64,000 nucleotides of DNA, from assembly GCA_029260035.1 (NCBI GenBank), contig JAJDEA010000252.1, positions 1,125 to 65,124 on the forward strand. Reading direction: 5' to 3'. The notes beneath the pieces are model-generated. The model saw only the letters and a list, made by a program, of their open reading frames with translations. It was not told the origin of the DNA and made no database searches. Within the stretch, counting starts at the first letter, position 1, and each line of letters begins with the position of its first letter. This document shows positions 17,629 through 53,835 of the stretch, piece after piece. Source of the stretch: Phycisphaerae bacterium (lineage in GTDB: Bacteria; Planctomycetota; Phycisphaerae; UBA1845). Position numbers and translations under genes: made by a program.

Positions 17629-17687
17629 GTAATTTTTCCATTTTCATTTTTTCGAATGCCGGCACTGCCTAACCGACGAAACCAGTA

Positions 17688-18557: not shown

Positions 18558-18648
18558 ATTATCTTCCCAACCAACTGTAATTCAACAAGAGAGTGGTCCT
18601 GCAGAACAGTATCCCCTTCAGGCATAGGCACCAAAGGCCAAAGAGGCT

Positions 18649-21212: not shown

Positions 21213-22559
21213 TTAACGTATTATCGCATGACGCGGAACATATGTTTGATTACGCGTGACGCGACCGGGGTACGATTCGGACTCCATTCTGGACATAATG
21301 GCTCCAGCCAACACTGTCAAAACCGGACTGAGAAAGGCATTGAACAAGAAATTTGTAGCTTGCAACCCGACGGCAATGGTAATAGCCATCAAAGCGGCAT
21401 CGGTTTCAGTAGATCGCCCCTGCCAGAGATTTCGCACCAGTGGATAGCACCACCAAAAATAAAATGCGGCTAGCCCAACAATGCCATATGTGGTGAGATA
21501 AATAATCCACAAGCCATCCGCCGCCATGACGTCGTTCCCCGCGGCGTCCGTCACGCGATTCCTGCCCCATCCGCCTAAACCGAACCAAGGCTCTCCTTTT
21601 GAATGATCCAGCAAGATCGTCTCCGCCCTGATTCGGTATTGCAGAGAGCGTGCTCTCTCCGGAGAAACTTGCGCAATGGCGGAAGACATCCAGCTGCCAT
21701 CGCTAACGTCTGTGTAGCGTGTAACCATCCAGCTAAATGCCAAAATCGCAGGGATCACCGCGACGAATCGACGATTGGTTTTTTGCCAGACGAGTAACAT
21801 GCCAAAGCCGACTATCGCAAGCCCCCACGGACCAAATGACATCGAGGTAAGGAGTCCCAGCATGCACATGCCAACAATGACAACCGACGGCACGCCGAAG
21901 AAAGGAGGCAGAAGTTTGCTTCGATATAACCAAATCGCAACGACCGACGTCCAGGCAAAAAACGTACCCAGCGCGAGGTTGGATGGAAAAAATACCATAG
22001 GTCGGTAGAACCCCCAACGCATGGTCAGGTTCCATGAATGCTGCATGAAGCCATAAAACTTCTGGTGCAGTTGGGGGCTCATTCTCCATTCCCAAACTGC
22101 GAATACCGCATAGATCGCCGAAGCATATACGACCAGACGGCAGGCATCGAGCAATTCAGCCTTGGTTCGTATGAACACTCGACCAAAAATATACGGAACA
22201 GCGTACCAGAGAATCTGTTTGAGCATGACCGAAACGCCATCCTTGGGACCAAGGTCGTTCACCAAAGATGTAATACAGGTGACACCGGCAAACAGTATCA
22301 CCAGGATGTCAGCCATACCCAGACGAAACCCGGAAAATCGATTCGATTGAAAAAGGACGGTTCCAATCACAACGCCCGCACTGGTTGCGAAAACTTTGTC
22401 AATATCGGGCAGCCCTTGCACATGGATCGACGCCATCGGGAGTAGGAGCCAGCCGCCCAAAAACGAAATGATGCACGCGCGCACGGGTGGCAACAGCGCA
22501 AATAGCATAGCGCAAGTCGGTATCCAACCCAACAAAACCAAAACGGCTATCGAGCCCAT
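21213..22559 (-). CDS. Wzy polymerase / O-antigen ligase family membrane protein
   Basis: About 11 TM helices; MRWGFYRPMVFF; SLQYR and PWFGLGGWG in the Wzy_C-like loop. Same operon as the flippase. Confidence 0.8.
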   Translation of the reverse strand: MGSIAVLVLLGWIPTCAMLFALLPPVRACIISFLGGWLLLPMASIHVQGLPDIDKVFATSAGVVIGTVLFQSNRFSGFRLGMADILVILFAGVTCITSLVNDLGPKDGVSVMLKQILWYAVPYIFGRVFIRTKAELLDACRLVVYASAIYAVFAVWEWRMSPQLHQKFYGFMQHSWNLTMRWGFYRPMVFFPSNLALGTFFAWTSVVAIWLYRSKLLPPFFGVPSVVIVGMCMLGLLTSMSFGPWGLAIVGFGMLLVWQKTNRRFVAVIPAILAFSWMVTRYTDVSDGSWMSSAIAQVSPERARSLQYRIRAETILLDHSKGEPWFGLGGWGRNRVTDAAGNDVMAADGLWIIYLTTYGIVGLAAFYFWWCYPLVRNLWQGRSTETDAALMAITIAVGLQATNFLFNAFLSPVLTVLAGAIMSRMESESYPGRVTRNQTYVPRHAIIR

Positions 22560-23686
22560 GCATTCCCCTGTTCGGGCGCTGTCGATACGCCATCGCTCGT
22601 ACCGCGTGATTTGGCAATCGTTCTATTCATTGCGTCCAGGAATAAGTCCATCGCGTCATCCCAAGTGTAGCCGGTGGCTACCTCGTGCGCCCGGCTTGAA
22701 AGCGCTGCCCATTCCGTTTCATCCATCGCACATATCCGCTCAATCGCCTCCGCCATGTCTCGCGGATCACCTGGTTTCACAAGCAAACCGGCGCCATTGG
22801 CGAGCAGTTCTGGAGCCGCACCGGCGGGCGTCCCGATGACAGGAGTCCGACATGCCATCGCCTCAAGAATCGGCAAGCCAAAACCTTCTCGCCGACTCGC
22901 AAAAAGCCACGCGTCGCAGGAAGCGTAGATTTCACGAATCGTATCCTGCGCCGGAAAGCGAGAATACCTCGCACCTTCCGACAACGGCGGATCCGCCATG
23001 GGATCATCCGTCCCAAACGCAACCAATCGCAGGTTCGGTATGCGAGACTGTGCAATTCGATAAGCCTCTATGGCAATGTCGCATCCCTTCCACTCGATGG
23101 GCCGATAGAGCATACCCACCGTGGGTTGATCCTGTTTACCACGAGGCGGGGCGAAGAATTGTTTCTCATCCACCGCGTTTCTAACGATCGAAACATCGGT
23201 ATCGCCAAATTCATTGCACGCGATATCCGCCAGCCACTGGGATATGACAACCTTGCGTATCGGAAGCCTCCAGGTCGCCTTAACCCGATCGATCGGCTGA
23301 GTCTCGTGAACTTCGTAATGCTGAAGAAAATAAACCTTGGCGCCCTTTTCAGGGGCGAGCGAAGCTACCCATTCCGCAGTCTCCCACCATGTCGCCACAA
23401 CGACATCGGCGTCAGGAAGATCCGCATCGCACACAGGCCGCCAACGATCCAGGACACGATGGTCCAGCCCCACACCGTCAAAATGCGATGGACTCCTTCG
23501 CACCCGCCGAGGCCATCCCTCGCCGCGCAGAACGGATCGAAGTTTCCCCTGCAAGGGGATCGACCGCTGTGGCGTGGAGATCACGACCACATTGTGCCCG
23601 AGGCGCGACAGGCGTTCTGCATAAATCGCAATGACGCGCGTGCCACCTCCAAGGTTGGCATGTGGCAACACAAAGGTTATGTCCAT
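22547..23686 (-). CDS. Glycosyltransferase family 4 (WsaF-like N-terminus)
   Basis: GGTRVI, VVATWWETA, YFLQHYE, SRREGFGLPILEAMAC. Confidence 0.92.
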   Translation of the reverse strand: MDITFVLPHANLGGGTRVIAIYAERLSRLGHNVVVISTPQRSIPLQGKLRSVLRGEGWPRRVRRSPSHFDGVGLDHRVLDRWRPVCDADLPDADVVVATWWETAEWVASLAPEKGAKVYFLQHYEVHETQPIDRVKATWRLPIRKVVISQWLADIACNEFGDTDVSIVRNAVDEKQFFAPPRGKQDQPTVGMLYRPIEWKGCDIAIEAYRIAQSRIPNLRLVAFGTDDPMADPPLSEGARYSRFPAQDTIREIYASCDAWLFASRREGFGLPILEAMACRTPVIGTPAGAAPELLANGAGLLVKPGDPRDMAEAIERICAMDETEWAALSSRAHEVATGYTWDDAMDLFLDAMNRTIAKSRGTSDGVSTAPEQGNAWAR

Positions 23687-25200
23687 CCGAACATCCGTCT
23701 AACGCTGTTGGATCGCAGCAGACCCCACCCCCAACCGCCGCCAACCACAATGGCCGCTACCGCAAATGCGCCCAAATCGCTCTGCCAGCGATCGCGTACG
23801 ATCATGCTCAGCAATGCACCACCAACCGCAGCGACAAGGACAATCAGAGTCAACATGATGTCCCTCGGGAACCCGCGAAGTTCATTGCGCCAAGTCCCCC
23901 AACTTGATACGGAGTACTTCAACACCTCCGCGCCAAGAAGACCAAGGATCGCGCCCTGCAAACCGAGCAGGATATACCCAAACGGAATCAGCGCCGCCAT
24001 ACCAATCAGCTTCGACACATTCCCCCCAGCTACCCAATAAGGTTTGCCCATCGCGAGCAGCGCACTGCCGTTTGTACACTCTAGAATCTGGAACCACGCG
24101 ACACCCGTAAGAAGTTGAATCATACGGCCTGCCTCGTGATACCTTTCATCATAAAGCAAATACACAAAAGCAGGGCCACAGGCAGCCAATAGCGAAACCA
24201 ACGCAGCCCCCAAGAGAAGCAACGGATGGCGGACAGTGTGAAACGTCTTGGAAAGTGACCCGGCAGTGCGTACCAGTTTGCTATATGTCGGAAACACAAC
24301 CATCGAGCCGACTTTGAGAATCACTTGTACAGGCGTTAGTGCCAACATGAGGGCGATGCTATACACCCCTAGCATCTCGGTTGAGAACATCTTCCCGAAC
24401 GCGAGACGATCCGATTGACCCGCCAAGAACGTCGTGAGCGTGCTGATGAAGATCCATTTTCCGAAACTCAAGAGTGATCGACTCGCCTCTTTGTCCCAAT
24501 GAAACCGACAGCGCGAATTTTGTAGGATCAAGTGGGTCAACACCATCTTGGCCAGCGCCCCTGTCAATCCTCCCGCGACGAGCGCCCAAACGCTTCGATC
24601 CACAATAGCCCACACGACCATCACAACCAGTGCCAATATCTGAGCACTCAAATCCAGGAGGGCTATCTTGCCAATGGCCAATCTCCGATTCAGCGTAAAG
24701 AGCGCTGTCGAATTAAAGCCCGCGATAATCGCAACGGCACCCGATATCGGCAGTACACTGGCAAGCATTGGCATTCCGTAAAAAGATGCAACGGGATAGG
24801 CCAGTGCGCAAGCGCATACCCAAAGCGCAATGCCACGGAAAACCTGGATTGTCCAAGCCGTGTTCAAAAACCGGGGATCGTCTCCCCGCTTACTCTGAAT
24901 GATGCTGGGGCCAATCCCGACATCGGAAAACATCGTCAAGCCTTGCATGAAGACATTGACAAGGGTCATTAGCCCGAACGCTTCCGGGAAGAGCAGCCGT
25001 GTCAGCACCAGACTGCTACCCAGTCGCAATACCTGGCTGCCGCCATAGCTGACCACCGTCCAAACAGACCCTCGAATCGCCAGCGACTTAAGCGATGGGT
25101 CGGTTGGTTCCGGCCCCTGAGACTCGTCGCGAGTTGCTACTTGACCTGGAGCTTCAACGATGGAGAAAACCCTGTGAATTGTGGGGCCGCAAAATGGCAA
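23677..25200 (-). CDS. Oligosaccharide flippase (Wzx, PST family)
   Basis: LTRLLFPEAFGL, FSDVGIG, LNTAWT, FGKWIF...QSDRL, LGVYSIA; about 12 TM helices. True start is probably somewhat downstream of 25200. Confidence 0.92.
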   Translation of the reverse strand: MPFCGPTIHRVFSIVEAPGQVATRDESQGPEPTDPSLKSLAIRGSVWTVVSYGGSQVLRLGSSLVLTRLLFPEAFGLMTLVNVFMQGLTMFSDVGIGPSIIQSKRGDDPRFLNTAWTIQVFRGIALWVCACALAYPVASFYGMPMLASVLPISGAVAIIAGFNSTALFTLNRRLAIGKIALLDLSAQILALVVMVVWAIVDRSVWALVAGGLTGALAKMVLTHLILQNSRCRFHWDKEASRSLLSFGKWIFISTLTTFLAGQSDRLAFGKMFSTEMLGVYSIALMLALTPVQVILKVGSMVVFPTYSKLVRTAGSLSKTFHTVRHPLLLLGAALVSLLAACGPAFVYLLYDERYHEAGRMIQLLTGVAWFQILECTNGSALLAMGKPYWVAGGNVSKLIGMAALIPFGYILLGLQGAILGLLGAEVLKYSVSSWGTWRNELRGFPRDIMLTLIVLVAAVGGALLSMIVRDRWQSDLGAFAVAAIVVGGGWGWGLLRSNSVRRMFGWT

Positions 25201-26215: not shown

Positions 26216-28204
26216 TTGCGGAGGGCGAATTTGGCAAGGGATTCACAGAAAAATGTGGATGCTTCGGTTTCGCTACGTCTGTCGCGTGGATCAGATTGCG
26301 CAGACGTAGTGGTGCTTGCGGGAGGGGTGGGTCTGGACGAATCATGGACCTGTGGACAGTCGCGGTCGTTGCTGTCACTTCCTGGAAAAACCCTGCTCGA
26401 CGATGTTCTCACCAAGGTTTCAGCAGCGTTCGATGGCACGATCGCCGTGTGTTCAAATGGACATGCTGAAACGGTTGGCCAGCACGTCGTGGAAATGGCA
26501 TCGACCGACGCAAACATTCTTGTTCGCGAGGATCGCCTCCCCCGCGGCAGTGCGGGTTGCATCAAGGCATGTGAACCTGAGCTGCAAGGCGAAACGATCT
26601 TCGTTGTAGGCGCTTCCGTCTGGCTCGAAGACGATCCCCAATGGATGCTTGAAGAACACAAACGACGCGGGAACGTAGTCACGGTTTTCTGCATTCCGAA
26701 CCAGGTTGGCACAGGATCCGGATCAGAAACACGAATGCGTCCGGCTGGTATCTATTGTTGCGAACCCGAAGTGCTCGAACATATTCAACCTACTGGTTTC
26801 CAGGATCTCAAAGAACAATTGATACCTACGCTCCTTGCGCAAGGATTTCCTGTCGGTGTTGTGGCACTCAAGGGCCAAACACACCAGGTACTTGACTGGG
26901 CGACCTATTTGCACGCGATTACTCGTTCATTATCGAACGAGCAGTTCAGCGAACAAGGCTTCGAACAGCTTGCCCCAGCCATATGGTGTGGCCAAAATGT
27001 GACAATCGCTGATGACGCGCGGGTGGTCGGGCCCGCCCTTCTTGGGCATGGGTGCAACTTGGAATCCGGTTCGGTTATCATTGGACCAGCTATGCTTGGC
27101 GACAACTGTACGGTGTCCAGCAACTCAACCTTAATACGAACGGTTGTACCCGAGCTGACAACGCTCGCAGAATCCAGTTCGCTGATCGATCAGATTGTAC
27201 CAACACGATGGGTCGATAAGTCCTCAGACCGCCTTCAGTCCTCGGCCCGGTCAACCACCCAAGCAACCGGCCTCACAGATACAAGAAGGCGTGTGCCGAT
27301 TGGCGAATCAGCACGGGCCGTCGGTCAGAAACTTTCGTTGGGTTTTGGGGCGAACACGGCTTTGTTCGTGTGGGCTTTCTGGTCCAATTTTGAGGGGCTA
27401 TGGGAGGTCTGGCAGACGGATCCGAATTATGGCGCCGGTCAGCTTGTGCCTTTGGCCGCAGCTTATATGGTCGCAACGAAACGTCGCGCCCTTGAAGGTC
27501 TTTCTTTTCAGATTTCTTATGCCGGAATCGCCGTTTTCTCCGTCGGAATGGCGTTGAATCTATTCGGCTATCAATATCTATATATGTCGTTTTCCAATCT
27601 TGGGATGGTGATCTGCGCTTCGGGCGTTGTAATGACATTGACCGGGTGGGATGGCTACAAGCGCATCTGGTATCCGCTTGCCTTGCTTGGTCTTATGACT
27701 CCATTGCCTGCGAGGATACATGATGCGATTATGCTCCCGCTACAAACTTTTGGGGCGCGAGTCTCGGCCACAATTTTGGAAATCGGAGGAATTCCAGTCG
27801 AGCGTTTTGGCAATTTGCTGGAGGTAGCCGGCCAACGCATCGCCGTCGCGGAAGCCTGCAACGGTCTGCGAATGGCCATTGCATTCCTTATTGTTACAGC
27901 AGTTGTTGCGTATATTGTAGAACGACCGACTTGGCAGCGCGTCGTCATCCTGCTGTCGAGCATACCCATCGCCATGGGCTGCAATGTTGCACGGATCGTC
28001 GGCACAGCCTACTTATACAGCGCTGGCTACGATTGGCTTGCCCAGGGCGTTTTTCACGATGGCGCAGGTTTGCTCATGATGCCACTAGCCTTAATCCTGG
28101 TTCTTGTCGAACTACGCCTCTTGTCAAACCTCTCCGTCACTCTGTTTGACGACCAGCCGTCGATGGAAACCGCAGAACAAGTCGCCGCAACCCCGGTTCG
28201 ATAG
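26216..28204 (+). CDS. Fusion of a degenerate NDP-sugar pyrophosphorylase-like domain (NTase fold + LbH) with an exosortase
   Basis: Single uninterrupted ORF. N part: VVVLAGG, PRGSAG, AGIY, QDLKEQLIP, hexapeptide GPALLG/GPAMLG. C part: about 8 TM helices with exosortase triad VAEACNGLR, NVARI, FHDGAG. Start could be GTG 26255. Confidence 0.88.
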   Translation: MRRANLARDSQKNVDASVSLRLSRGSDCADVVVLAGGVGLDESWTCGQSRSLLSLPGKTLLDDVLTKVSAAFDGTIAVCSNGHAETVGQHVVEMASTDANILVREDRLPRGSAGCIKACEPELQGETIFVVGASVWLEDDPQWMLEEHKRRGNVVTVFCIPNQVGTGSGSETRMRPAGIYCCEPEVLEHIQPTGFQDLKEQLIPTLLAQGFPVGVVALKGQTHQVLDWATYLHAITRSLSNEQFSEQGFEQLAPAIWCGQNVTIADDARVVGPALLGHGCNLESGSVIIGPAMLGDNCTVSSNSTLIRTVVPELTTLAESSSLIDQIVPTRWVDKSSDRLQSSARSTTQATGLTDTRRRVPIGESARAVGQKLSLGFGANTALFVWAFWSNFEGLWEVWQTDPNYGAGQLVPLAAAYMVATKRRALEGLSFQISYAGIAVFSVGMALNLFGYQYLYMSFSNLGMVICASGVVMTLTGWDGYKRIWYPLALLGLMTPLPARIHDAIMLPLQTFGARVSATILEIGGIPVERFGNLLEVAGQRIAVAEACNGLRMAIAFLIVTAVVAYIVERPTWQRVVILLSSIPIAMGCNVARIVGTAYLYSAGYDWLAQGVFHDGAGLLMMPLALILVLVELRLLSNLSVTLFDDQPSMETAEQVAATPVR

Positions 28205-28227
28205 TCTCTCATATCGGAGCCTTGCAA

Positions 28228-28926
28228 GTGAATCAGCAACAGAAGAAATACATTTTCATAGGCATGGCACTGACCATGATCCTATGCGCCGGCCTGCTGA
28301 ATCGGTGGGTCCGCTCATCGCGTGCAAGCTCCGCATCCACATTTACCGATCTGCGGCGCCCACTATCCGAAATTCCGTTCAATATTGGCACTTTCACCTC
28401 ACGCGATGTACCCCTTAGACCTGACATCATGGAGGCATCTCGCGTCGATGCATATGTTCAACGAGAATATATGGACGGCCAAGGGAAGAGGCTTCTGGTT
28501 TATGTCGGTTATTGGGGGCTGGAGAACGTCGGAATGGGCCATGGCCCAGAGCGATGTTACCCGGCAGCCGGTTGGCAGGTCGATTCCCCTCCTAAGTCTG
28601 CCGATATTGAATTTTCATCCAAGGACCGAGGTGTCCCCACTGGAATCGGACTGCACCGATTCCTCCGAACAGAGCCGGAGGGCGTCAAACGATGCGCGGT
28701 TGGCTTTGTTGCAGTCGTCAGCGGCGTTTATCAAGAATCATCGCGAGGTGTATTTTGGCATAGGTCCGGCCAATCCAACGAACAAGGCGGCCATTTTCTT
28801 GCCCATGTCCACATAAGTACGTTTCCGGAAAGCGATAAGTGGGATGAAGCTGAATCCGATATCATAGAATTCTCAAAGCAGCTTCTTCCAAATGTGGCAT
28901 TGTGCCTTCCCGGCGGGATCGAGTAG
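28228..28926 (+). CDS. EpsI-family exosortase-associated protein
   Basis: One N-terminal TM helix; LSEIPFNIGTF, DAYVQREY, VYVGY, GHGPERCYPAAGW (H-x-P-x-x-C-Y...GW). Directly after the exosortase; GTG start 8 nt after GGAG. Confidence 0.85.
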   Translation: MNQQQKKYIFIGMALTMILCAGLLNRWVRSSRASSASTFTDLRRPLSEIPFNIGTFTSRDVPLRPDIMEASRVDAYVQREYMDGQGKRLLVYVGYWGLENVGMGHGPERCYPAAGWQVDSPPKSADIEFSSKDRGVPTGIGLHRFLRTEPEGVKRCAVGFVAVVSGVYQESSRGVFWHRSGQSNEQGGHFLAHVHISTFPESDKWDEAESDIIEFSKQLLPNVALCLPGGIE

Positions 28927-28964
28927 AATACCGTTGTGTGTTTGCGTCAATGTAGTGGCGCCAA

Positions 28965-31109
28965 GTGAACCTAATCATGACTGACCCAACCGAAATCGTC
29001 GTGGCGAGGGACCACATTCTGGACGCGCCGATGCCGATTGGAACCGCCGCAGCCTCGTCTCGATCCCTATCGGACGCAATTAAGTTTCGATGGAAGTCCG
29101 CATTCATTATTGCGGTAGTCCTTTCGGCGGCATCTGTCGGAACTATTTGGCATTTCGTAGAGCCGAAATACGTTGTCGTCAGCCAACTTGAGATCGATCC
29201 GGTCGTTCAGCCAATTCTACGACGTGACGCGTCAGCAGACATCTCTAGGCATTACAACATTTATGTAGCTACGCAACGCGGCACGATACTAAGCCCCGAC
29301 CTGATCGCCGAAGCGTTGGAATCGCCGAAAGTCAGAGAAGTCCCCCCCCTTCAAGGTAAAGGCGACCAGGTCTCGCTTGTCTTGTCTAAACTTACAGTAA
29401 GAAGGATACCTGGAACGGAGCTGCTCCGACTAGGCATGATCGGCCAGCAACCCGAGACACTGGCCGCAATCGTAAACAGCATTGCACAAGCCTATCTCCG
29501 TAGGCATGAAGACGAGAAACGAGAACTCGACGAACTCGTTCTTCAATCACTGCGTGACGAACGTGCTTCTTTGGACGCTCAACGCAAAGCAAAAGCTACC
29601 GAGATTCAGACCTTGCAGGCGGAGGGGTCGAATGGAGCGGAACCAAATTTCGACGCTGCTATCACCATATACCACGAAAACCTGATTGCCGTTCAACGAA
29701 AGCATTCAGTAGCCGAGATGAAACTAAATGTCATCAAGAGTGGCGCCGAAAAAGACGGAGCGACAGAACTCACTCTGGGCAACATTGAAGCCTACAAAGC
29801 CCAGGACCCACAACTAAACGCAATGAAAACGCAGCTTCGATCGGTGAAGATGGAGCCATTCCAAGACGAAGCGGTAGGTCGTGGCAAGAGCCATCCAGAC
29901 GTCAAGTCAAGGCCGCAACGTATCTCTGCCCTGGAAGATGGCATCGCGCAACGAGAAAAGGAGATTCGCGAGGAATATTTGCGAGACGAGATCAGCCGAC
30001 TTCAATCAGACATCCTTGAAGCCGAGATTGAGGAAGAAATGATCCAGCTTGCGCTGGCCAAAGTGTATTCAAGAAATATGGGTAGCTCACGTCAAGATCA
30101 TGTCATAGCAGATATCGGGCACGAGCGAGAATTCGTGGAAAGAGCGCTGGAGCAAGTCCGCAATAAGATATGGTCTGTCCGCGTCGAGCAGAAACGGATG
30201 AGCCGGGTTAAATTGAAATCACCCGCACGCGCACCGAGTAACCCGAATCTTGACAAACGACCGAAATTTTCCGTCGTTGCGTGCATTGCCTGCTTCTTCC
30301 TGAGCGGCGCGTTCACATTCATTCGCCACCGAGTTGATTCGCGAATCAGAACACCCGTTGAAGTCTCGCAAGGACTGGGCGTTCGCATCCTGGGCAGCGT
30401 TCATCATGTTCAGGAAGCCAACGGCAGCCCTCTTTCACTCGAACACGGATTGCGTGAACCCGTACGCGGGATTTCGACGGTGCTCCTCTCCTTATCCGAG
30501 GAAAGGAAAAGCCGAAGTCGTCTTATCACCAGCCCAACGCCAGGCAGTGGCAAATCCTCTCTCGCGGTAAACCTTGCGCGCAGCATTGGAGCGACCGGTA
30601 GAAAGGTTCTACTTGTCGATGGCGACAATCACAGGCAGGGCGTATCTCGAGTTCTGCAAATGTCGGATGGTCCGGGATTGCGTGAGTTCTTACTGGGCGA
30701 GTGCCCAGCGGATTTGGTAATTCACGCTCTCCCTTCGGAACCTTTTCGGCTTCTTGCAGCCGGATCCGCCGACGACTGTTTCAGCGATATTGTAGCTAAC
30801 CAAAATGCGCAGAAGCGTCTAAGGGACCTGTTTCTTGAGTACGATGAAATCATTGTTGATTCACCGCCGGTTCTTGCGAATAGTCACGCCGTGATTCTGG
30901 CAACACTTGTGGATGAAGTTGTATTGGTTCTCCGAGCTGGCCGGTCAAGCCGCGAAGAGGCAGAAGCATCAAAGCAGTGCCTGGCGTCAGTTGGTTGCCA
31001 TGCTGTGGGAGCGATTCTAAATGGCGTTGATCCCAAGCAAGTTAAGTACGGCTATGGATACGGTTATAGCTACGGTTATGCCGGTAGTGACCAAAACAGC
31101 CAAGGATAG
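28965..31109 (+). CDS. Wzc-like polysaccharide co-polymerase / tyrosine autokinase
   Basis: Two TM helices around a coiled-coil; Walker A ITSPTPGSGKS, A' VDGD, B IIVDSPP; C-terminal Tyr cluster KYGYGYGYSYGY. Confidence 0.93.
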   Translation: MNLIMTDPTEIVVARDHILDAPMPIGTAAASSRSLSDAIKFRWKSAFIIAVVLSAASVGTIWHFVEPKYVVVSQLEIDPVVQPILRRDASADISRHYNIYVATQRGTILSPDLIAEALESPKVREVPPLQGKGDQVSLVLSKLTVRRIPGTELLRLGMIGQQPETLAAIVNSIAQAYLRRHEDEKRELDELVLQSLRDERASLDAQRKAKATEIQTLQAEGSNGAEPNFDAAITIYHENLIAVQRKHSVAEMKLNVIKSGAEKDGATELTLGNIEAYKAQDPQLNAMKTQLRSVKMEPFQDEAVGRGKSHPDVKSRPQRISALEDGIAQREKEIREEYLRDEISRLQSDILEAEIEEEMIQLALAKVYSRNMGSSRQDHVIADIGHEREFVERALEQVRNKIWSVRVEQKRMSRVKLKSPARAPSNPNLDKRPKFSVVACIACFFLSGAFTFIRHRVDSRIRTPVEVSQGLGVRILGSVHHVQEANGSPLSLEHGLREPVRGISTVLLSLSEERKSRSRLITSPTPGSGKSSLAVNLARSIGATGRKVLLVDGDNHRQGVSRVLQMSDGPGLREFLLGECPADLVIHALPSEPFRLLAAGSADDCFSDIVANQNAQKRLRDLFLEYDEIIVDSPPVLANSHAVILATLVDEVVLVLRAGRSSREEAEASKQCLASVGCHAVGAILNGVDPKQVKYGYGYGYSYGYAGSDQNSQG

Positions 31110-31150
31110 ATCGCCCTGGATATGAGGTTGTCGATTCGGTCGCAGCCTGC

Positions 31151-31155
31151 AGGAG
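31151..31155 (+). promoter_or_regulatory. Shine-Dalgarno AGGAG ahead of an in-frame ATA for the sugar transferase
   Basis: AGGAG-aagtgcc-ATA; the ATA at 31163 is in frame with ORF 31229..32695 with no intervening stop. Confidence 0.45.
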
Positions 31156-31162
31156 AAGTGCC

Positions 31163-32695
31163 ATAATCACGACTCGCCGACAAGACGTTATCCTCGTCCA
31201 TTTTGAGGATTCCTTTGCGCAGAAGTCATTGCTCGGAACGGACGTGGGTCCAGGGAATCACAGTAGAGAACCGGCAGCGTCGAGTGCTCTTGACTGGTAT
31301 TGCGAGTGGGCATCGGATTGCATGGGGCCAGTGTTTCCTTTACTTCCCGCGCATCTTCAGCACTCCGTCGAACAAACCGGTGGCAGGCTTGCGAATGCGC
31401 GCTGCGCTTGGTATTCAAGCGACGGTGAAATCAAACTTCCTGTCTCTCTTGAGAAAACGCGCCTTTGGGTCATTAATGGACAATTGCTTCCCATTGTGAG
31501 CTGGGATGCTGCACATCAGGCTGCCGACGAGCACCAATGCGACGCGCTGTTCTTCGGTCCGCCCGGCTCCGCGTCAGCCTCTCAGTATCCGGAATCCTTC
31601 GTCGTAGATGCGGCTGGCAAAATCCTGCGTGTTGAACGCCATTATGTTGACTCACCCGTTTTTACGAACGTATATTTCGGCCCGGCATGCTTCTTGCTCG
31701 CGCAGGGCAGTCGCGCCACTTCGATCGTACACCACGTCATCCGCAAGGGTTGGTGCCTGGATAGCATTCGCACACTATCACAAAACGCGAAAATTGAATG
31801 GTGTGTGACGCCGGGGGTCTTGTCCAGTTTGGAGGGCGCTGTCTTTGCCGGTCGAATCGAAGGGCGAAAGTCGCCGTCTCAAAATGACGCGAATCAAGGT
31901 TCCGACAAGGGATCAAACGTAAGGCCGCTGGAATCAAACACAGAACAAAAGCCGCCGGGCAATTTTGTTCGAGACTTCACCAAGAGGTCGATGGACATTG
32001 TATTGTCATCGATATTTCTATTTTTCCTTAGCCCGCTGTTTGTTGCAACTGCCGTATTAATACGCTTCACTTCTCGTGGCCCTGTTTTTTTCGCAGACCG
32101 AAGACAAGGCTTGGGCGGCAAGGAATTCAGTTGTTTCAAGTTTCGGACCATGATTCCAGAGGCCGCCAGCCTCCAATCCAAGCTTCGACAAGAGAATGAG
32201 GTGGACGGGCCGCAATTCAAACTTTCAAACGATCCCAGGCTTACGAAGGTCGGAGATTTTCTTCGGAAATACAACGTTGACGAGCTACCACAACTATTTA
32301 ACGTTCTTGTAGGAGAAATGAGCCTGGTTGGACCGCGCCCATCTCCTGATCGTGAGAATCAACTGTGTCCCGGTTGGCGACGAACTCGTCTTTCGGTTCG
32401 ACCCGGAATAACGGGCTTATGGCAAGTTCTTCGGTTGCGCAATTCAAACACTTCGGATTTCCAAGAGTGGATTTATTATGATGTTGAATACGCCAAGCAC
32501 CAATCATTATGGCTTGACTGCCTCATCATTCTATACACACCGTGCACCGTCTTCGCACCGCGCCTTGTGGGTAGGCTGGCCAAGAAGATTGCCAAGCGAG
32601 GCATATGTACAGGCTCCGAGCGTGTCCATTCAGGTGACACGAAAGACCCACCTTCCATGCACAGGGCCACCGAAATCTCCAGTTGCGATATCTAA
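31163..32695 (+). CDS. Priming polyprenyl-phosphate glycosylphosphotransferase (WcaJ/WbaP catalytic domain) with an N-terminal degenerate NTase-like domain
   Basis: KRSMDI, GPVFF...RQG, FKFRTM, DPRLTKVG.FLRKYNVDELPQLFNVLVGEMSLVGPRP, RPGITGLWQV. The first canonical start is TTG 31229; I favour ATA 31163. Confidence 0.9.
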   Translation: MITTRRQDVILVHFEDSFAQKSLLGTDVGPGNHSREPAASSALDWYCEWASDCMGPVFPLLPAHLQHSVEQTGGRLANARCAWYSSDGEIKLPVSLEKTRLWVINGQLLPIVSWDAAHQAADEHQCDALFFGPPGSASASQYPESFVVDAAGKILRVERHYVDSPVFTNVYFGPACFLLAQGSRATSIVHHVIRKGWCLDSIRTLSQNAKIEWCVTPGVLSSLEGAVFAGRIEGRKSPSQNDANQGSDKGSNVRPLESNTEQKPPGNFVRDFTKRSMDIVLSSIFLFFLSPLFVATAVLIRFTSRGPVFFADRRQGLGGKEFSCFKFRTMIPEAASLQSKLRQENEVDGPQFKLSNDPRLTKVGDFLRKYNVDELPQLFNVLVGEMSLVGPRPSPDRENQLCPGWRRTRLSVRPGITGLWQVLRLRNSNTSDFQEWIYYDVEYAKHQSLWLDCLIILYTPCTVFAPRLVGRLAKKIAKRGICTGSERVHSGDTKDPPSMHRATEISSCDI

Positions 32696-32741
32696 CGGAA
32701 CCTTGTAGCCTTGCAAACTTGGCGTGGGAGAATGCTTCGAT

Positions 32742-35700
32742 ATGTCGAAGTCTCGGCACTCAAAACTAAGAAACCGGCGACGTATTTTCTTTTTGGTTGG
32801 ATTTCCGATCTGCGCGGCGGTTCTTGCCGTCGGCGCGTATGCGGCGTACAACTACCAGCGCGAGAGGAACACCGAGAAGCTACTTAAGCAGGCGCAAGGT
32901 GCATCTGAAGCCGAAGACTGGGCTCGCGCATCGAAAGCCTATCGCCAGTATCTTAACCGCAGACCTAAAGACATGTCTGCACTTCGGGCGCGCGCTGGCG
33001 TCCTGTTGGAGCAACTCAAAGAATCTCCGGAAGTTGTGGGCACTGCGATTGCCACTTTGCGCAGGCTGGTCAAAGAGGATCCAGGAAACACCGATGCAAT
33101 TGGTCAACTCGCCGAGCTTTACGTCCAACTTCGTGAGTTCGATGACGCAAAAGACTTATCTACACAATGGCTTGCCAGCGTCCCCCAATCGGAAAAAGCG
33201 ACTCGCACATTGGCTGCTGCAAATCGCGGGCTTGGAGAATTTGAGGTAGCGACGGCAGGGCTTGTCAGCGCAATCGAGACTGACCCCACCAGTGTAACTC
33301 TCTATCCTCCGTTAATCGCTCTCTATACCCTGGACCTGAAACTGTTGGACCAAGCGAAGAATGTGCTCGAGCAGGCACTGGAATTTGGATCACATTCAAC
33401 TGAAATCCAGTTGGCTGCGTTTGGATTCCATGAGGCTATACAGGAATTTGATACGGCGGAGAATTTCCTAAAAGCGGCAGTCCGGATGGAGCCGGACGAC
33501 CGACGCGTACTTTTGACCGCCGCAGCTTACTATGTTTCTCAAAGACGCTTTGAGAGCGCTCGGCCTTTCCTGGATCGCGCCGCTGAGCTGTTTCAACATG
33601 ATCCAAAACTCCTGACTCTCCTCGCGGACTCGGCCGTTGGATCACACGACGATAAAGAGTGTATCGATGTCGCGACGATACTGCGCGAAAACGCCAGCGA
33701 TCGGTATCCTCACTGGGCTGCGCGTGCCGCAGAACTGTTCATTACGGCTGGCCATTTCGATGAAGCAGACGAGTGTATCGAGTTTCTCGCAGGCATCTCG
33801 CTTGTAGACGAGAAACTTGAGTCCTGGCTTCTAGCGCTTCGAGGCTCAAGAGCACTCATGTCCGGGCAGGCTCTTGTAGCAATCCCATACTTTGAAGCCG
33901 TGCTCCGCCGTGAGCCAACGAGTGTTCCTACCCTTGAGCACTTGGCCGCAGCGTATGTGCAGTCAGATGCTCTTGAGCCAGCCATTGATGCGTATCGAAA
34001 GTTGATTGCCCTCGCGCCGGAATCGAAAAACCCTCGCTTAGCCTTAGCCCGTCTCGAAGCAGCAAAGGGTAATTGTGACAGTGCCCTTGCGACACTAAAC
34101 CCCTTGCCACGCATCGAGTTGGAGTCGAGTCGAGAGGCGGCGCTGATTTCGATCATTTGCGATTTTCGCGAACATGTTTTTTCGCGTGAAGAAGAGAGTT
34201 CCCAAAAACTCCTCAAGAGAATCCGCTCATTTGGCCAAGAGAAACTCGCTAGCATTCTTGAAGCCAAACTATTCGTTCAATGCCTGGAACTTGTCAATTT
34301 TTCGCCGGAACTGGAAGACACCATTTCCACCCGCTCGACCGACGAAGGGGCAGGACTCATAGTCGGTGCCGCGTATGGGAAACATTTGGTTCAGGCTGGC
34401 CGGTTTGATGATGCGCTCGACGTCGCCACTGAATTGGCACGCCGATTTCCAGACGCTGCTGGAGGCCATGAATTGGCGTTGCGAGTATTCGCGGCGAAGA
34501 ATCATGTCGCTGAGGCTTTTACCTATATCAATCAACTTGCCACCGAGGATCATACCAAAGGAATTTTGTTGCAGCTTCTTGGTACCTTGCTGCACTCGGC
34601 TGATCCCGAAAATGCGCTTTCGGCTTATCGCCAATGTATTGCGCTACATCCGGACTCCGTTGTCGCACGAATAGGAATTGCCGACCTGGTAACAACTCTC
34701 GATGAAGCTCTGACGCAAATCGACGCCGTTCGTCAACTTGAAGGCCAAGCGGGCGTCACATGGAAATATCACAAAAGTGCTTGTTTGCTTCGTCTTGGAA
34801 AAGGTAGCAACGACACGGTCAACGAAGCAATCGCGCTGCTGAAAAACTGTCTCGTCGATCGACCGAATTGGCTAGCCGCTCGCATCCTCTTGGCAAATGC
34901 CTACCAATCCGGGAACCAAGTACTGGAGGCTGTTGAGTCTTACCAAACGGCGTTATCGCAACACCCGGAACTTGCTACCAGTCCGGTCGGTCTTCGTTTG
35001 ATACTATTGCTCAAGCAGCTGGGAAGGCTTGTTGAAGCCGACGTCATCTTGACACAAATGGCAAATAAGGCCCCGGAATCAATCCAGGTACTGCGTCTGC
35101 AGACGGATCGCCATTACCGAAGGCGCAACCTCTCGGCAGCCGCACGGACTGCAGAGAAAGTGCTGAATTCGCAATCCGACGATGCTGAATGGGCAGCCCT
35201 TACTGCAGAAATCCACTTGAAAAACTCGAACCCATCCCGTGCAGAAGAAATCGCTCGGGCGTCGCTGGCTAAATATGCAGATTCAACCGTTCTACTCTGG
35301 GCACTCGCGTCCTCACTCAGCAATCAGGGGAAAAATGCGGAGGCTGACGAGGCCATGCAAAAAGGCGCACAGGATTTTCCGGACGTCGATCATTATTGGT
35401 TGCTCGCGCAGTATTTTGAACAATCCAACCGACATAACAAAGCCGACAACGCTATCACTCAAGCCATAGACTTGGAGCCTGACAATGTTGCCCTCTTGAT
35501 TGGCTGTGCAGAAATTGCACGGCGGCGAGGCCAAAGAAGCAGGCAAATCGATTTAGTGACTCGCGCTGTCATCGCCAAGGGAGATGCCCCGACCGGATCG
35601 CTCATACTTGCGAGAGTCCTTGCCGACGGCGGTTCCGAATCGCAGCGTGCGCAAGCCTCGGAAATCGTATCGCAAAGACTTCGAGATAATGAAAATGACG

Positions 35701-36941
35701 TACCCGCACTCGTCTTGCACGCCCAGCTTCTTGGCTCAGCACTTCCCCCTGATTTTCAGGGCGCCGAGACCGCCTTGCACAAAGCATTATCCCTCAACAC
35801 TCGATCCGTCAAAGCCCATCAACTTCTTGCGGCTGTTCAAGTCCGCCTGGGACAGTTGTCGCGAGCAGCCGAAAGCGCGACCGAAGGACTTTCTGCAGCG
35901 CCAAATAATCTCGAACTCCTGCTACTTACCGCTGAAATAGCAGGCTATCGCGGCGAATACGAACGCTCGATAACGCCGTTGCGCCAAATCCTCAACCTTC
36001 GGCCTCGACATCAGGCGGCGGTACGGATGCTCTCCTTAGCCTATCAGGAACTCGGGCAAATTGATCGAGCCATTCGCCTCGTCGAACAGCAATCGCCCGA
36101 GGATCAGCGCAGCAAGACGGAAATCAGAGCGCTCGCTCGTTTGCACGAAAAAAAGAGAGAATTCGATATCGCGCGTGTTTTCTATGAGCAATATGCTCAA
36201 GTCTCAAATAACTCTCCCGCCGCATTTCAGGCACTACTTCATTACGTCGCAAGACGCAAAAAGTTTCCCGAAGTACATCGCTTAGCCATCGAGCACAAAA
36301 ATGAAGACGCTGGAGATGTCGCCTCTCTCGCCACGGCTGCGCAGATTCTTGGCACGCAGCCGGATGACCCTGCACTTGCGAAAATCGGCCTCGCCTGGCT
36401 GGATGAAATCGCGCGTAATCAGCCGGACCATGCAACCGACGCCATTTACCGGGCCGCCCTTTGTCACTACCAGCGAGGCAGAATTTCTGAAGCAGAATCG
36501 AGATTCCTTCAGGCGCTTAAGCTGGCACCTGAAGCTTTAGCCCCGGTTAATGCTCTGGCGTGGCTATATTCGGAAGATCTTGATCGCCCAGAGGATGGAC
36601 TTGCGCTGATCGAACGTTTTCTTGCAGCGGGAGGCCGAGGTAATGCCGAAATGCTCGATACACACGGGACGATTCTTCTGAGGCTTGGCCGTATCGATGA
36701 AGCGGCTGAAAAGTTCAAGGTGTGCATCGAAATCGCAGGACAAACACAAACACTTACCGCAGCCACTTTTCATCTTGGCCTGGCCACGCGGAAAGCCAAT
36801 CGTATCGCCGACTCACAAGCTCTGTTGAGCCGATCATTGAACCTGAATGCTCGACTCGGAGGTTTGAAAGATGAGGACTTAGAAATAATCGCAGGATTGC
36901 TTTCGAGCGATTCCGGGATAGTTGATAGGAAAGACAGATGA
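32742..36941 (+). CDS. Very large membrane-anchored TPR protein (PrsT-like)
   Basis: N-terminal basic stretch plus TM helix, then about 1350 aa of TPR-like helical repeats; C-terminal NALAWLY...EMLDTHG. ORF open from GTG 32724. Confidence 0.85.
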   Translation: MSKSRHSKLRNRRRIFFLVGFPICAAVLAVGAYAAYNYQRERNTEKLLKQAQGASEAEDWARASKAYRQYLNRRPKDMSALRARAGVLLEQLKESPEVVGTAIATLRRLVKEDPGNTDAIGQLAELYVQLREFDDAKDLSTQWLASVPQSEKATRTLAAANRGLGEFEVATAGLVSAIETDPTSVTLYPPLIALYTLDLKLLDQAKNVLEQALEFGSHSTEIQLAAFGFHEAIQEFDTAENFLKAAVRMEPDDRRVLLTAAAYYVSQRRFESARPFLDRAAELFQHDPKLLTLLADSAVGSHDDKECIDVATILRENASDRYPHWAARAAELFITAGHFDEADECIEFLAGISLVDEKLESWLLALRGSRALMSGQALVAIPYFEAVLRREPTSVPTLEHLAAAYVQSDALEPAIDAYRKLIALAPESKNPRLALARLEAAKGNCDSALATLNPLPRIELESSREAALISIICDFREHVFSREEESSQKLLKRIRSFGQEKLASILEAKLFVQCLELVNFSPELEDTISTRSTDEGAGLIVGAAYGKHLVQAGRFDDALDVATELARRFPDAAGGHELALRVFAAKNHVAEAFTYINQLATEDHTKGILLQLLGTLLHSADPENALSAYRQCIALHPDSVVARIGIADLVTTLDEALTQIDAVRQLEGQAGVTWKYHKSACLLRLGKGSNDTVNEAIALLKNCLVDRPNWLAARILLANAYQSGNQVLEAVESYQTALSQHPELATSPVGLRLILLLKQLGRLVEADVILTQMANKAPESIQVLRLQTDRHYRRRNLSAAARTAEKVLNSQSDDAEWAALTAEIHLKNSNPSRAEEIARASLAKYADSTVLLWALASSLSNQGKNAEADEAMQKGAQDFPDVDHYWLLAQYFEQSNRHNKADNAITQAIDLEPDNVALLIGCAEIARRRGQRSRQIDLVTRAVIAKGDAPTGSLILARVLADGGSESQRAQASEIVSQRLRDNENDVPALVLHAQLLGSALPPDFQGAETALHKALSLNTRSVKAHQLLAAVQVRLGQLSRAAESATEGLSAAPNNLELLLLTAEIAGYRGEYERSITPLRQILNLRPRHQAAVRMLSLAYQELGQIDRAIRLVEQQSPEDQRSKTEIRALARLHEKKREFDIARVFYEQYAQVSNNSPAAFQALLHYVARRKKFPEVHRLAIEHKNEDAGDVASLATAAQILGTQPDDPALAKIGLAWLDEIARNQPDHATDAIYRAALCHYQRGRISEAESRFLQALKLAPEALAPVNALAWLYSEDLDRPEDGLALIERFLAAGGRGNAEMLDTHGTILLRLGRIDEAAEKFKVCIEIAGQTQTLTAATFHLGLATRKANRIADSQALLSRSLNLNARLGGLKDEDLEIIAGLLSSDSGIVDRKDR

Positions 36942-37074
36942 TTACAAGGCGCAACCGAGCGTTGAATCTGAAATGCACAGCTGCGTCCCGGCGCCAAGAC
37001 GCAAGTGCTTGCACGAATATCGTGCGCTAAGGTACAGTTAGTTCACCAGGAAAGACTTATGGCGGAGGACGTTT

Positions 37075-38064
37075 TTGGATACGACGGTTAACAAGACATC
37101 ACAGCATTCGGCTTCGTTGCGAGATTACATCGCATTGCTGCGCCCGCACCAGTGGGTTAAGAACATTGTAGTCTTCGCGGGCCCTGCTGCGGGCCTGACC
37201 TTGTCATCGCCCGAATCCGTTTTCCAAGCCTGCATCGCCTTTGCATCGTTTTGCTTCGCGGCCAGCGCGATCTATGCAATCAACGACGCGATTGACCACA
37301 AAGCCGACGCGTTGCATCCGACCAAACGCAATCGGCCCATTGCCAGCGGAGTTCTCAGCCCTTCGACAGCTGTCGTCATCGCAATCTTCCTTGTCGCTAT
37401 GGCCTTGATTTTGCCCACAGCATTCACAAACAAAAAAGTCACCATAATCCTTGCGATTTACTTCGTAACCATGCTGGCTTATTCCCTTGCACTTAAAGAA
37501 CGCATCATTTTAGACGTCATTCTTTTGGCATCCGGGTTCGTCATGCGAGCATTAGCAGGAGCCGCCGCCGTAAACGTCGTTGCATCTGAATGGCTCATCG
37601 CGTGCGTCTTTACGCTCTGTATGTTTTTCGGATTCGGCAAGAGGCGGTGTGAAATAGTCATGATAGGCGACGCCGAATCAGCCGGTCACCATCGCAAGAC
37701 TCTCCTCCGATACACCCCTGAGCTTCTCAACCACCTGATCACAGTTTCTGCAGCTGTCGCCATCATGACATTTCTTCTTTACACGATGGATTCGACGCAA
37801 AGCGATTCCCCATTCCGAAAGGAATATCTATTCTACACGTTGCCTATCGTAGTGTACGGAATTTTTCGTTATGCAATGCTAAGTGAGATGGGGATTTATA
37901 GTGGGCCGACCGAAATCATCCTGAAAGATAAGATGATGGTGGCTTCCATCATTATTTGGGGGGTTGTCGCGCTTGCAATCGCATATCACGATCCACTCGC
38001 GCAGTCGATGGGATTCGAGGATTGGACTTGGGGACCTGCTGCGTCGCCGGCGGAGGTTCAGTGA
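37075..38064 (+). CDS. UbiA-family polyprenyl-phosphate phosphoribosyltransferase (DPPR-synthase-like)
   Basis: LRPHQWVKN, YAINDAID...DALHPTKRNRPIASG, YSLALK, GFVMRA, GFGKRRCE, YGIFRY, GPTEIILKD. GGAGG Shine-Dalgarno before TTG. Confidence 0.88.
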   Translation: MDTTVNKTSQHSASLRDYIALLRPHQWVKNIVVFAGPAAGLTLSSPESVFQACIAFASFCFAASAIYAINDAIDHKADALHPTKRNRPIASGVLSPSTAVVIAIFLVAMALILPTAFTNKKVTIILAIYFVTMLAYSLALKERIILDVILLASGFVMRALAGAAAVNVVASEWLIACVFTLCMFFGFGKRRCEIVMIGDAESAGHHRKTLLRYTPELLNHLITVSAAVAIMTFLLYTMDSTQSDSPFRKEYLFYTLPIVVYGIFRYAMLSEMGIYSGPTEIILKDKMMVASIIIWGVVALAIAYHDPLAQSMGFEDWTWGPAASPAEVQ

Positions 38065-38079
38065 GCGTGCAATAGCAAC

Positions 38080-39498
38080 TTAATCTTCAACAACGTGGGT
38101 CGCAAATGCCTCACGACAACTTTCCCACATTTGCGCATCAAATGATCCATCACCGCGCAGACAATCGACAGCACCATACGCCATAGCCAGTGCATGATGT
38201 GTATTGTCATGCGCAAATAGACCCTGCCGACCGAATGACAGTACGTTGGGCAGATCAGTCGCCCAATGGTCCATTACGTCGAAGTGCTGTTCGTAGCCGT
38301 TTTTGTAAATGGGGTACGCGTGGGGCAGGCGTCGCACAACAGTTTTGATGACCGGACACTTGACAGGCAATCCACACCGAGAAAGGCTGTCCTTGACAAT
38401 CTCGCCAAGCGCGTCGTCTGAGGCCGACCAAACGTCGTCTGATTGATCGCAAGGCAACTCGCCACAAAGGACGGTCCATCCTTTCGGCTCGCTTCGATCA
38501 CTGTAATTCTTAGGCTCTGAAAGACGCGTCAACTGAATGTCTCTCTCCGGGAAATAGTGCGCGTCGTATGGCGAGAACTGATCCTGCCCGAGAACGAGAT
38601 AGATCAAAACCATAGCCCGCGAGTCCATGCTGGCAGCCGACTCGAGGACATGCGATGGAGGCGACGGCTCGACCAACCTCGCCAGCACCGCTAGCGGGAT
38701 CGTCGACCAGACGTAGTCCGCTTCGATCGACGCCTTCGTCCCGTCACTTTCAACCTCAATGCGTACGCGATCTCCTGTCACGATCTTGGTAACGCGCGAC
38801 CGTAGCTTGATGTCCGCTCCATCAGCCTTAGCAGCCTCGGCAATTGCCTGGCTGATCTGCCCGAAGCCTCGATTGGGATAGTAAAACCGCCCACTCCCCG
38901 GCGCTCGAAAACCCGGCACGACACCGAAAACCTTACGGATCATTCGGCCGAGCGAACCAGCCGAAACCCGACGACGCGCCTGTGTCGCAGAAAGTAACTC
39001 CGGCGCCATCCCCCACATTTTCCAGGCATAAGGGAAATAGAAATCTCGACAGATCGTTTTGCCAAGCCCTTGCTTTAGCACGCTCGCGAAAGTTTCGTCC
39101 CCGCTCTTTCGACCGATTCGAAGATTCTTGATGGTCGCGTCTCGCGCCACACCCAACCCGAACGACCAGGGCAGCCGAAGAATCAAATCGACAGGTTTCA
39201 GCGGAAAGTGAATCCACCTCCCGCGAAGACGAATGCGTCCGTGTCTAGGCCGATCGAGAAGGTCTTTGCCTAGCAGGTCACGGATGTCGTTCAAGATGGC
39301 CGGGTCGCATGATGGATGCAAGCGATGACTTCCGTAGTCAACGGGAAGTCCATCCAGGTCGAAGCTCCCGGCGTTTCCGCCGACGCTTTCGCCCTGCTCG
39401 ATCACCTCAACCGTTGCCTTGTCCGCTGCACGAAGCCGCCAGGCAGCCCCCAACCCGGCGGGACCGGCTCCCAAAATTGCAATATGTGGCTTACTCAT
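38080..39498 (-). CDS. FAD-dependent oxidoreductase (HemY/Glf-like flavoprotein of glycan clusters)
   Basis: GAGPAG, E...[36 protein letters not shown]...NTHHA. Confidence 0.85.
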
Positions 39499-39560
39499 TG
39501 TTTCGCATCAACAAAAAATTCCGACCTGCATTCCATACGCCGCAATTGGCCCGAAAGAAA

Positions 39561-40775: not shown

Positions 40776-40796
40776 GAACAGCCGTCACCCGTACGA

Positions 40797-41399: not shown

Positions 41400-41418
41400 G
41401 TCTGCCTAGCCTCCGACA

Positions 41419-42363: not shown

Positions 42364-42377
42364 TATGGCATTCTCAT

Positions 42378-44174: not shown

Positions 44175-44206
44175 GTTGGTTTCGTTTTTGACGAGACAGG
44201 GACGTG

Positions 44207-47955: not shown

Positions 47956-48026
47956 TCAGTCACAACCAATGCGGCATCTCGCATAACCCTGAGCAGGGAT
48001 CGCCGTTTCCAGAAAAAGCCGCATCA

Positions 48027-51920: not shown

Positions 51921-52028
51921 TAGATTGTCTCCTCAATTGAACGGTCACGATCGGACGCCATCATGGTGCCAGACGCACACTGGCTTCGCAGACCTCGATA
52001 CACGACCCACCGCATCACCATGATCTCC

Positions 52029-53819: not shown

Positions 53820-53835
53820 TCAAAGCTGCCCTGCG

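Follow-up and report, generated by a model that had tools for sequence, protein, structure and literature searches.

The subject of this analysis is an operon in a 64-kb stretch of DNA from a Phycisphaerae bacterium (contig JAJDEA010000252.1; hereafter the window, whose coordinates are used throughout), in which an exosortase and a priming phosphoglycosyl transferase (PGT) each carry an N-terminal domain that resembles nucleotidyltransferases. We call the domain on the exosortase XN and the domain on the PGT PN.

The operon and its two nucleotidyltransferase-like domains

The original prediction described six co-oriented genes, and the listing of open reading frames (ORFs) for the window contains all six on the + strand at 26216-38064. 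They encode the XN-exosortase fusion protein (26231..28204; 657 residues from a TTG at 26231, within a longest ORF from 26216), an EpsI-like protein (28222..28926), a Wzc-like co-polymerase/tyrosine kinase with a Walker A motif and a C-terminal Tyr cluster (28965..31109), the PN-PGT protein (31163..32695), a PrsT-like TPR protein of 1405 residues with one N-terminal hydrophobic segment (32724..36941), and a UbiA family protein of the decaprenyl-phosphate phosphoribosyltransferase (DPPR-synthase) type (37075..38064). Profile searches bore out the predicted identities of the EpsI-like, Wzc, TPR and UbiA proteins, with PF11984 above its cut-off and TIGR02914 below it (28.9 < 42.8) for the first, TIGR02917 below its cut-off (230.7 < 312.2) for the TPR protein, and NF008977 (252.6 > 234) and NF008978 (236.3 > 207) above theirs for UbiA.

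In the fusion ORF (26216-28204), Pfam places NTP_transferase at residues 32-164 (E 2e-7), then Hexapep, then Exosortase_EpsH at residues 382-635 (E 1e-55). XN itself (26291..27205) is predicted to be cytoplasmic and to have a GMPP/CugP-type nucleotidyltransferase fold followed by a left-handed beta-helix. A search with the first 316 residues returned 51 proteins, the majority of which have 600-700 residues and both parts; the named ones belong to Phycisphaerales/Planctomycetota. As judged from these sequences, the XN-exosortase is a family and not a chance join. An assembly or ORF-calling artefact was rejected, given 76 distinct fused exosortase domains. The structure model of the fusion protein has a mean predicted local distance difference test score (pLDDT) of 82, and its XN part matches 8x7s, GMPPA/B and VTC1 at Foldseek E values of 1e-17 to 1e-15. 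The closest solved structure to XN in both sequence and fold is 8x7s (E 1e-16; 21% identity).

Motifs were read in an alignment of 96 XNs from the loci described below (of 99 unique sequences, 3 short ones were dropped) and 120 stand-alone database XNs (the best 120 of 194), against two intact controls, one from C75 of the window's genome (G000) and one the RmlA-like ORF in locus L076. The G-x-G-[TS]-R loop is kept in 1/96 locus XNs and 0/120 stand-alone XNs, and the Lys of the PK motif in 4/96 and 2/120, often with Arg in its place. The Glu-Lys-Pro (EKP) sugar-binding hairpin is gapped in 96/96 and 119/120, respectively. The Asp of W-x-D occurs in 0/96 locus XNs; the Asp of GD occurs in 0/120 stand-alone XNs and is not among the seven commonest residues that cover 94/96 locus XNs. 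The acid at the base position is kept in 92/96 and 120/120, and the base-pocket Gly that follows it in an acid-x4-Gly arrangement, five residues on, in 96/96 and 120/120. An XN-specific D-x-K-E motif is present in 90/96 and 119/120. Because the catalytic motifs are lost, XN is predicted to be catalytically dead. We take the acid-x4-Gly columns to be the positions of Asp80 and Gly85 of VTC1. According to the excerpt of PMC9168903, these two VTC1 residues bind guanine. XN would thereby keep a nucleobase pocket, for which guanine is the likeliest base and uracil is possible. The predicted dead pyrophosphorylase domain on the exosortase thus stands as a degenerate nucleotidyltransferase, by Pfam, model and lost motifs, and "dead" stays a prediction.

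Besides the fused forms, a database search found 194 stand-alone XN proteins at E <= 1e-20. XN proteins are named "NDP-sugar synthase" or "mannose-1-phosphate guanylyltransferase" (NDP, nucleoside diphosphate) in the databases; these names are automatic, and all NCBIfam scores of XN are far below cut-off. XN is apparently an undescribed pseudo-enzyme family that carries the database labels of active NDP-sugar synthases.

The second domain belongs to a monotopic priming PGT (PF02397, 205.6 > 27) whose Asp-Glu dyad is invariant in the family alignment and intact in 77/82 PGTs of a wider set. The PGT has a single re-entrant hydrophobic segment (residues 279-297), lacks a PF13727 match and a four-helix membrane bundle, and scores below cut-off with TIGR03025 (257.4 < 295.55). 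PN (31163..31846) had no Pfam match in the window protein or in 17 members and resembled XN neither in BLAST nor in a profile-profile comparison (hhalign prob 0.7), and its profile matched among PDB sequences only ribosomal L31, by chance. The structure model of PN (pLDDT 85.5) suggests a strongly degenerate nucleotidyltransferase fold. It matched KdsB/RmlA in Foldseek (E 7e-6) and, by VIA, IspD, GlmU, 8x7s, eIF2B and GMPP at Z 10.3-8.7 (for Z 10.3, rmsd 4.3 with 185 aligned), with nearly all of the top 33 VIA rows being nucleotidyltransferase-type; the ESM Atlas leads were likewise nucleotidyltransferase-like (0.92-0.93). A beta-helix follows PN in 53/54 PGTs outside the window's clade and in 0/27 inside it. 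The presence of both the fold and the beta-helix in distant PGTs implies that PN and XN share one kind of ancestor, a nucleotidyltransferase joined to a beta-helix.

PN lacks the Gly-rich loop, and the catalytic-loop pattern is present in 2/81 PN N-terminal stretches. The former sugar hairpin keeps a Glu in 81/81, an Arg in 75/81, a Tyr in 69/81 and an Asp in 63/81. By manual alignment, this Glu and this Arg stand in the hairpin (31592-31640) where active enzymes have their sugar-binding Gly and Glu, respectively, and the two may be joined by a salt bridge or make up a new site for a ligand. The proposal of a dead pyrophosphorylase domain on the priming transferase was therefore upheld by the model as to a degenerate nucleotidyltransferase fold, and its inactivity stays predicted from lost motifs. 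The PGT frame is open for 22 codons 5' of a TTG (31150-31229). Because this extra stretch encodes the conserved first strand of PN, translation probably starts at the ATA at 31163, behind a GGAG. P0052, the protein as given in the database, begins far downstream of this and lacks the first strand of PN.

The exosortase domain (27311..28129; PF09721, 189.1 > 25.7; TIGR02602, 134.5 > 105.55) appears intact. C543, N585/R588 and H609/G613 are invariant in 44 alignment rows, and Cys-x-Gly, Asn-x-x-Arg and His-x-x-x-Gly are kept in 74, 76 and 76 of 76 fused domains, respectively. Among the named exosortase subfamilies XrtA, B, C, D, V and W, no cut-off was reached (e.g., XrtA 135 < 208; XrtD 142.6 < 400). 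The genome encodes three exosortase-family genes, which are the window fusion, an unfused exosortase adjoining a second Wzc (G000:C5:4447-9402) and a short exosortase (G000:C243:1131-2394). A scan of the genome for PEP-CTERM-like tails, which the original prediction had called for, found them, with 14 PEP-type and 5 PVP-type tails by pattern and 5 TIGR02595 matches above cut-off; the pattern scan also gave 25 tails that we take to be IPTL-like.

Distribution, selection and rearrangement of the module

The module is found across Phycisphaerae and in a few Planctomycetota outside that class. A narrow PN profile matched 31/101 genomes of the window's family, and the class has XN-exosortase fusions in four further families. 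In a sample of 301 genomes of the phylum, one XN query matched 11, including 5 from other classes. An alignment scan that covered 17/64 parts of the genome contigs, where a single-protein query gave no matches, returned loci with Sedimentisphaerales and Anaerohalosphaeraceae among the record titles and many others titled Pirellulales. The XN clusters in the ESM Atlas are mostly from Planctomycetota, and the others are from Acidobacteriota, Bacillota, Myxococcota, Verrucomicrobiota and archaea. One XN-exosortase locus is recorded twice, with a Pelotomaculum title and with a Pirellulales title (L154 and L155), probably from a mis-binned contig. A locus outside the class (L076:941-14568) holds XN, PN-PGT, exosortase, EpsI, Wzc and TPR genes in another order, followed by an intact RmlA-like enzyme.

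Gene content was counted in loci L021-L166, which contain 107 XN ORFs (99 unique). We evaluated 83 of them that had 5.5 kb of downstream sequence or a PGT already seen, a rule that favours positives, and the counted loci are kin rather than independent draws. A PGT gene lies downstream of XN in 82/83 evaluable loci, and in 70/71 when loci picked by PN were removed. XN is fused to an exosortase in 62/83 loci, of which 62/62 have the PGT and 60/62 have Wzc. XN stands alone in 21/83 loci, with PGT in 20/21, Wzc in 12/21 and a separate exosortase in 5/21; the remaining 16/21 lack an exosortase within 9 kb downstream. Wzc is encoded in 72/83 loci, between the XN and PGT genes and usually directly after XN. 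In an independent metagenome scan, 80 of 265 loci were kept, of which 73 were unique and 18 had at least 5 kb downstream. Among these 18, the PGT was present in 18/18, a PN profile match in 15/18, Wzc in 17/18 and an exosortase in 4/18 (2 fused, 2 separate), a figure biased by a query made from unfused XNs.

The predicted co-occurrence of both pseudo-nucleotidyltransferase domains in homologous loci therefore held nearly without exception (82/83 loci; 15/18 metagenome loci with a PN match). The constant core of the module is XN plus PGT, usually with Wzc, and the exosortase is optional. UbiA, EpsI and TPR were rejected as core parts, being present in 4, 11 and 20, respectively, of the 24 fused loci whose downstream sequence reaches 12 kb or more. 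UbiA, which the original prediction had counted into the operon, is thus correctly identified and co-oriented but accessory to the module. The PN-PGT gene is apparently split in L055 (8948-10121), L112 and L128, and UbiA lies in two ORFs in L026 (13915-14903). An extra XN paralogue is encoded at L081:6926-8116, in a genome that also has a full XN-Wzc-PGT locus (L082).

Pairwise dN/dS values were 0.05-0.16 for XN (5/10 pairs computable), 0.06-0.41 for PN (8/10 pairs computable) and 0.06-0.18 for the exosortase, and are rough at dS of 1.1-3.0. Neutral evolution (dN/dS near 1), which the original prediction had named as evidence against itself, was not seen, and XN and PN are under purifying selection. 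PN diverges fast, with a mean tree distance of 4.3 vs 1.1 for the PGT core.

Loci with rearranged genes are the most informative. Two-gene cassettes of XN and PN-PGT that lack Wzc and exosortase occur in L023, L024, L030, L038, L051, L052, L083 and L084. In the XN tree, the unfused XNs of the first six nest inside the window's fused clade, and each lies directly before PN-PGT. Genome G007 has the XN plus PN-PGT cassette twice, and its orthologous exosortase (L086), which nests in the fused exosortase clade, is unfused and accompanied by TPR and Wzc. G007 and the nested unfused cassettes imply that XN goes with the PGT when the fusion breaks. All XNs at the base of the tree are unfused. Exosortases with the fusion make up two groups, with unfused exosortases between them, and a single origin was not rejected (p-AU 0.088; 42/116 rows used). 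In L131:1363-2376 and L159:7209-8576, XN and the exosortase are adjacent but separate ORFs and the exosortases nest in the fused clade, a pattern that we read as fission or frameshift.

Explanations for the XN-PN pair

We give an even chance to the explanation in which XN, as a catalytically dead subunit with a ligand-binding nucleotide pocket, docks on PN and tunes the first step of polysaccharide synthesis. Neither XN nor PN would make NDP-sugars; the genome need not rely on XN for them, because it encodes three other PF00483 proteins and one PF01704 protein that offer other NDP-sugar routes. XN would bind nucleotide through its retained base pocket and would form a heterodimer with PN, as nucleotidyltransferase paralogues do in GMPPA/GMPPB and KJC/VTC1. 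The pair may then gate the use of UDP-sugar and polyprenyl phosphate, as has been proposed for the accessory domain of WbaP, and the regulated PGT would start a Wzx/Wzy-type glycan. Fusion to the exosortase would hold XN at the inner membrane near the PGT and fix their co-expression, and would be dispensable. In favour of this explanation are the near-constant linkage of XN to PN-PGT, the two-gene cassettes, the arrangement in G007, the lost catalytic motifs beside a kept base pocket, and the purifying selection on both domains.

Several results weigh against this explanation. In 3/18 metagenome loci the PGT has no PN match, the PGT ORFs in L112 and L128 lack the long N-terminal part, and the XN in L081 has no PGT within 6 kb downstream. 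There was no XN-PN co-evolution signal, as mutual-information peaks did not exceed those of control pairs (68 loci, Neff 62, low power). In the same low-powered set of 68 loci, the partial tree-distance correlation was 0.35 for XN-PN vs 0.47 for XN-Wzc, and Wzc, whose gene stands between those of XN and PGT in 72/83 loci, is a rival partner. All known dead/live pairs have one active nucleotidyltransferase, and we know of no precedent for a dead/dead pair. GMPPA-type dimers are joined through the beta-helix (excerpt of PMC9168903), which PN lacks in 27/27 PGTs of the window's clade.

A doubtful alternative is that XN and PN hold the exosortase and the priming transferase together, which would couple PEP-CTERM processing to glycan initiation, and that the system exists for this coupling. 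The fusion of XN to an intact exosortase in 62/83 loci, in several families and also outside the class, fits this explanation, as do the separate exosortase downstream in 5/21 unfused loci and the 14 PEP-type tails in the genome; the two groups of fused exosortases would fit two fusions. However, no downstream exosortase was found in 16/21 unfused loci or in 14/18 metagenome loci (with the query bias toward unfused XNs), XN stayed with the PGT after fission in G007, and the genome has a second, unfused exosortase. Moreover, the exosortase catalytic triad is predicted on the periplasmic face in the excerpt of PMC1569441, and XN is predicted to be cytoplasmic. Exosortase coupling as the core of the system, as originally proposed, was thus not borne out. 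It is equally improbable, in our estimate, that a dead/dead XN-PN heterodimer senses nucleotide or NDP-sugar pools and, in fused lineages, locks the exosortase to the PGT across the inner membrane. If such locking occurred, PEP-CTERM processing would take place where and when lipid-linked glycan is made, which would provide the first physical link for the long-noted association of exosortases with exopolysaccharide (EPS) genes and a handle on the acceptor in exosortase transpeptidation.

Also unlikely, to a similar degree, is that XN acts on Wzc or is a ligand-free scaffold of a Wzc/PGT/TPR machine, with PN serving the PGT separately, as an accessory or for dimerisation. The frequent position of Wzc directly after XN, its presence in 17/18 metagenome loci, and the higher XN-Wzc correlation argue for this arrangement, as does the loss of the beta-helix from PN in the window's clade, where XN kept its own. 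By contrast, Wzc is missing from 11/83 loci, in which XN and the PGT are mostly together, and the near invariance of the base-pocket residues and the D-x-K-E motif goes beyond the need of a bare scaffold.

Two further explanations seem to us quite improbable, each to the same extent. XN could regulate, as a subunit in the manner of GMPPA or GlgD, an active pyrophosphorylase that is encoded elsewhere and feeds the pathway. Dead paralogues of this fold have such a role in other systems (excerpt of PMC9168903), and the retention by XN of the fold and the beta-helix is consistent with it. However, no active GMPP/CugP-type paralogue with a full beta-helix was found in the genome, which is 94.6% complete; its PF00483 proteins read as a ManC-type enzyme, GlmU and a short enzyme, and XN is tied to the PGT and not to an active enzyme. 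The other explanation is that XN, alone or with PN, is an active atypical enzyme that works through residues invariant in each family (D-x-K-E for XN; Glu/Arg/Tyr/Asp for PN). The two patterns of loss do look complementary, in that XN keeps the base pocket and PN keeps the hairpin, conservation is strong and family-specific, and the database names imply activity. Yet XN and PN both lack the Arg, Lys and metal-binding Asp residues, the sugar-binding Glu position of PN reads Arg in the manual alignment, and the database names are automatic, with NCBIfam scores far below cut-off. Finally, that XN and PN are functionless relics carried in the operon is barely credible and was rejected in its neutral form; the fast divergence of PN and the loss of its beta-helix in one clade are what such decay would give, but dN/dS is well below 1, residues are invariant, and both domains are kept across the class and through rearrangements.

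Known systems and surroundings of the operon

Every part of the module belongs to or resembles a known family, and what would be new is the XN-exosortase fusion, PN as a domain and the pairing of XN with PN. In the literature searched we found no description of any of these three; two papers outside that coverage, on the monotopic-PGT network (10.1073/pnas.2018289118) and on exosortase classification (PMC3256604), may list nucleotidyltransferase fusions. The EPS loci of exosortase/PEP-CTERM systems (EpsH, EpsI, PrsT), as described in the excerpt of PMC1569441, resemble the present one in having a Cys/Arg/His exosortase beside EpsI-like, chain-length, sugar-transferase and TPR genes and PEP-CTERM proteins in the genome. 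They differ in that the only fusions named in that excerpt are with EpsI and a CAAX-protease; the window exosortase has instead an N-terminal, putatively dead nucleotidyltransferase with a beta-helix, and the string "nucleotidyl" occurs 0 times in that paper.

For the PGT, the closest parallel is offered by the large WbaP-type enzymes, which, like PN-PGT, are priming PGTs with a non-catalytic N-terminal domain. According to the excerpt of PMC10942596, the WbaP accessory domain (PF13727) provides the dimer interface, binds uridine nucleotides and has a proposed regulatory role in limiting the use of the lipid carrier. PN-PGT differs in its predicted nucleotidyltransferase fold, its one hydrophobic segment and the second, separately encoded, putatively dead paralogue alongside. 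PN is a PGT accessory domain undetected by any Pfam model. The same excerpt calls priming transferases gatekeepers of the scarce lipid carrier. XN and PN, as two soluble domains, touch both the regulation of PGTs and the reason for the presence of exosortases in EPS loci.

For XN, the excerpt of PMC9168903 offers GMPPA/GMPPB and KJC/VTC1, in which an inactive nucleotidyltransferase plus beta-helix paralogue is likewise a ligand-binding or structural subunit of a heterodimer. XN differs from GMPPA-type subunits in having lost the whole sugar-binding hairpin. The cyanobacterial CugP-type UTP-glucose-1-phosphate uridylyltransferase 8x7s is named as active by its depositors, unlike XN, in which the catalytic motifs are missing and which occurs in fusion or linkage with membrane proteins. 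GlgD and eIF2B gamma/epsilon follow the same theme of inactive nucleotidyltransferase paralogues as subunits, and both are present among the fold matches of the XN and PN models. In the GMPPA, KJC/VTC1, GlgD and eIF2B systems, the inactive paralogue works with an active pyrophosphorylase or within a eukaryotic complex, whereas XN and PN are both predicted to be dead and their presumed output is a membrane PGT. If this is correct, two dead paralogues paired to act on a membrane transferase would extend the GMPPA/GlgD theme.

The operon lies in a large cluster whose ORFs encode glycosyltransferases, flippases, sulfatases and polyprenyl-sugar-dependent transferases; promoter and terminator counts in the window were at chance level. 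Divergent from the operon, on the - strand at 21213..25200, are genes for a flippase, a GT4 protein and a polytopic membrane protein with no family match. They would be the start of the glycan cluster primed by the PGT, with the polytopic protein read as Wzy-like. Further upstream, RmlC-like, RmlD and epimerase/dehydratase genes lie at 17161-19671, and there is no RmlA-type enzyme among the PF00483 matches of the genome. On the other side (37075-55383), UbiA faces a convergent run of genes that encode a PRK07208-like flavoprotein, a polyprenyl-phosphate-sugar synthase-like GT2 protein and several GT-C-like membrane proteins, one of which has a weak arabinofuranosyltransferase match. By its gene content, this run is possibly a pathway for lipid-linked pentose decoration.

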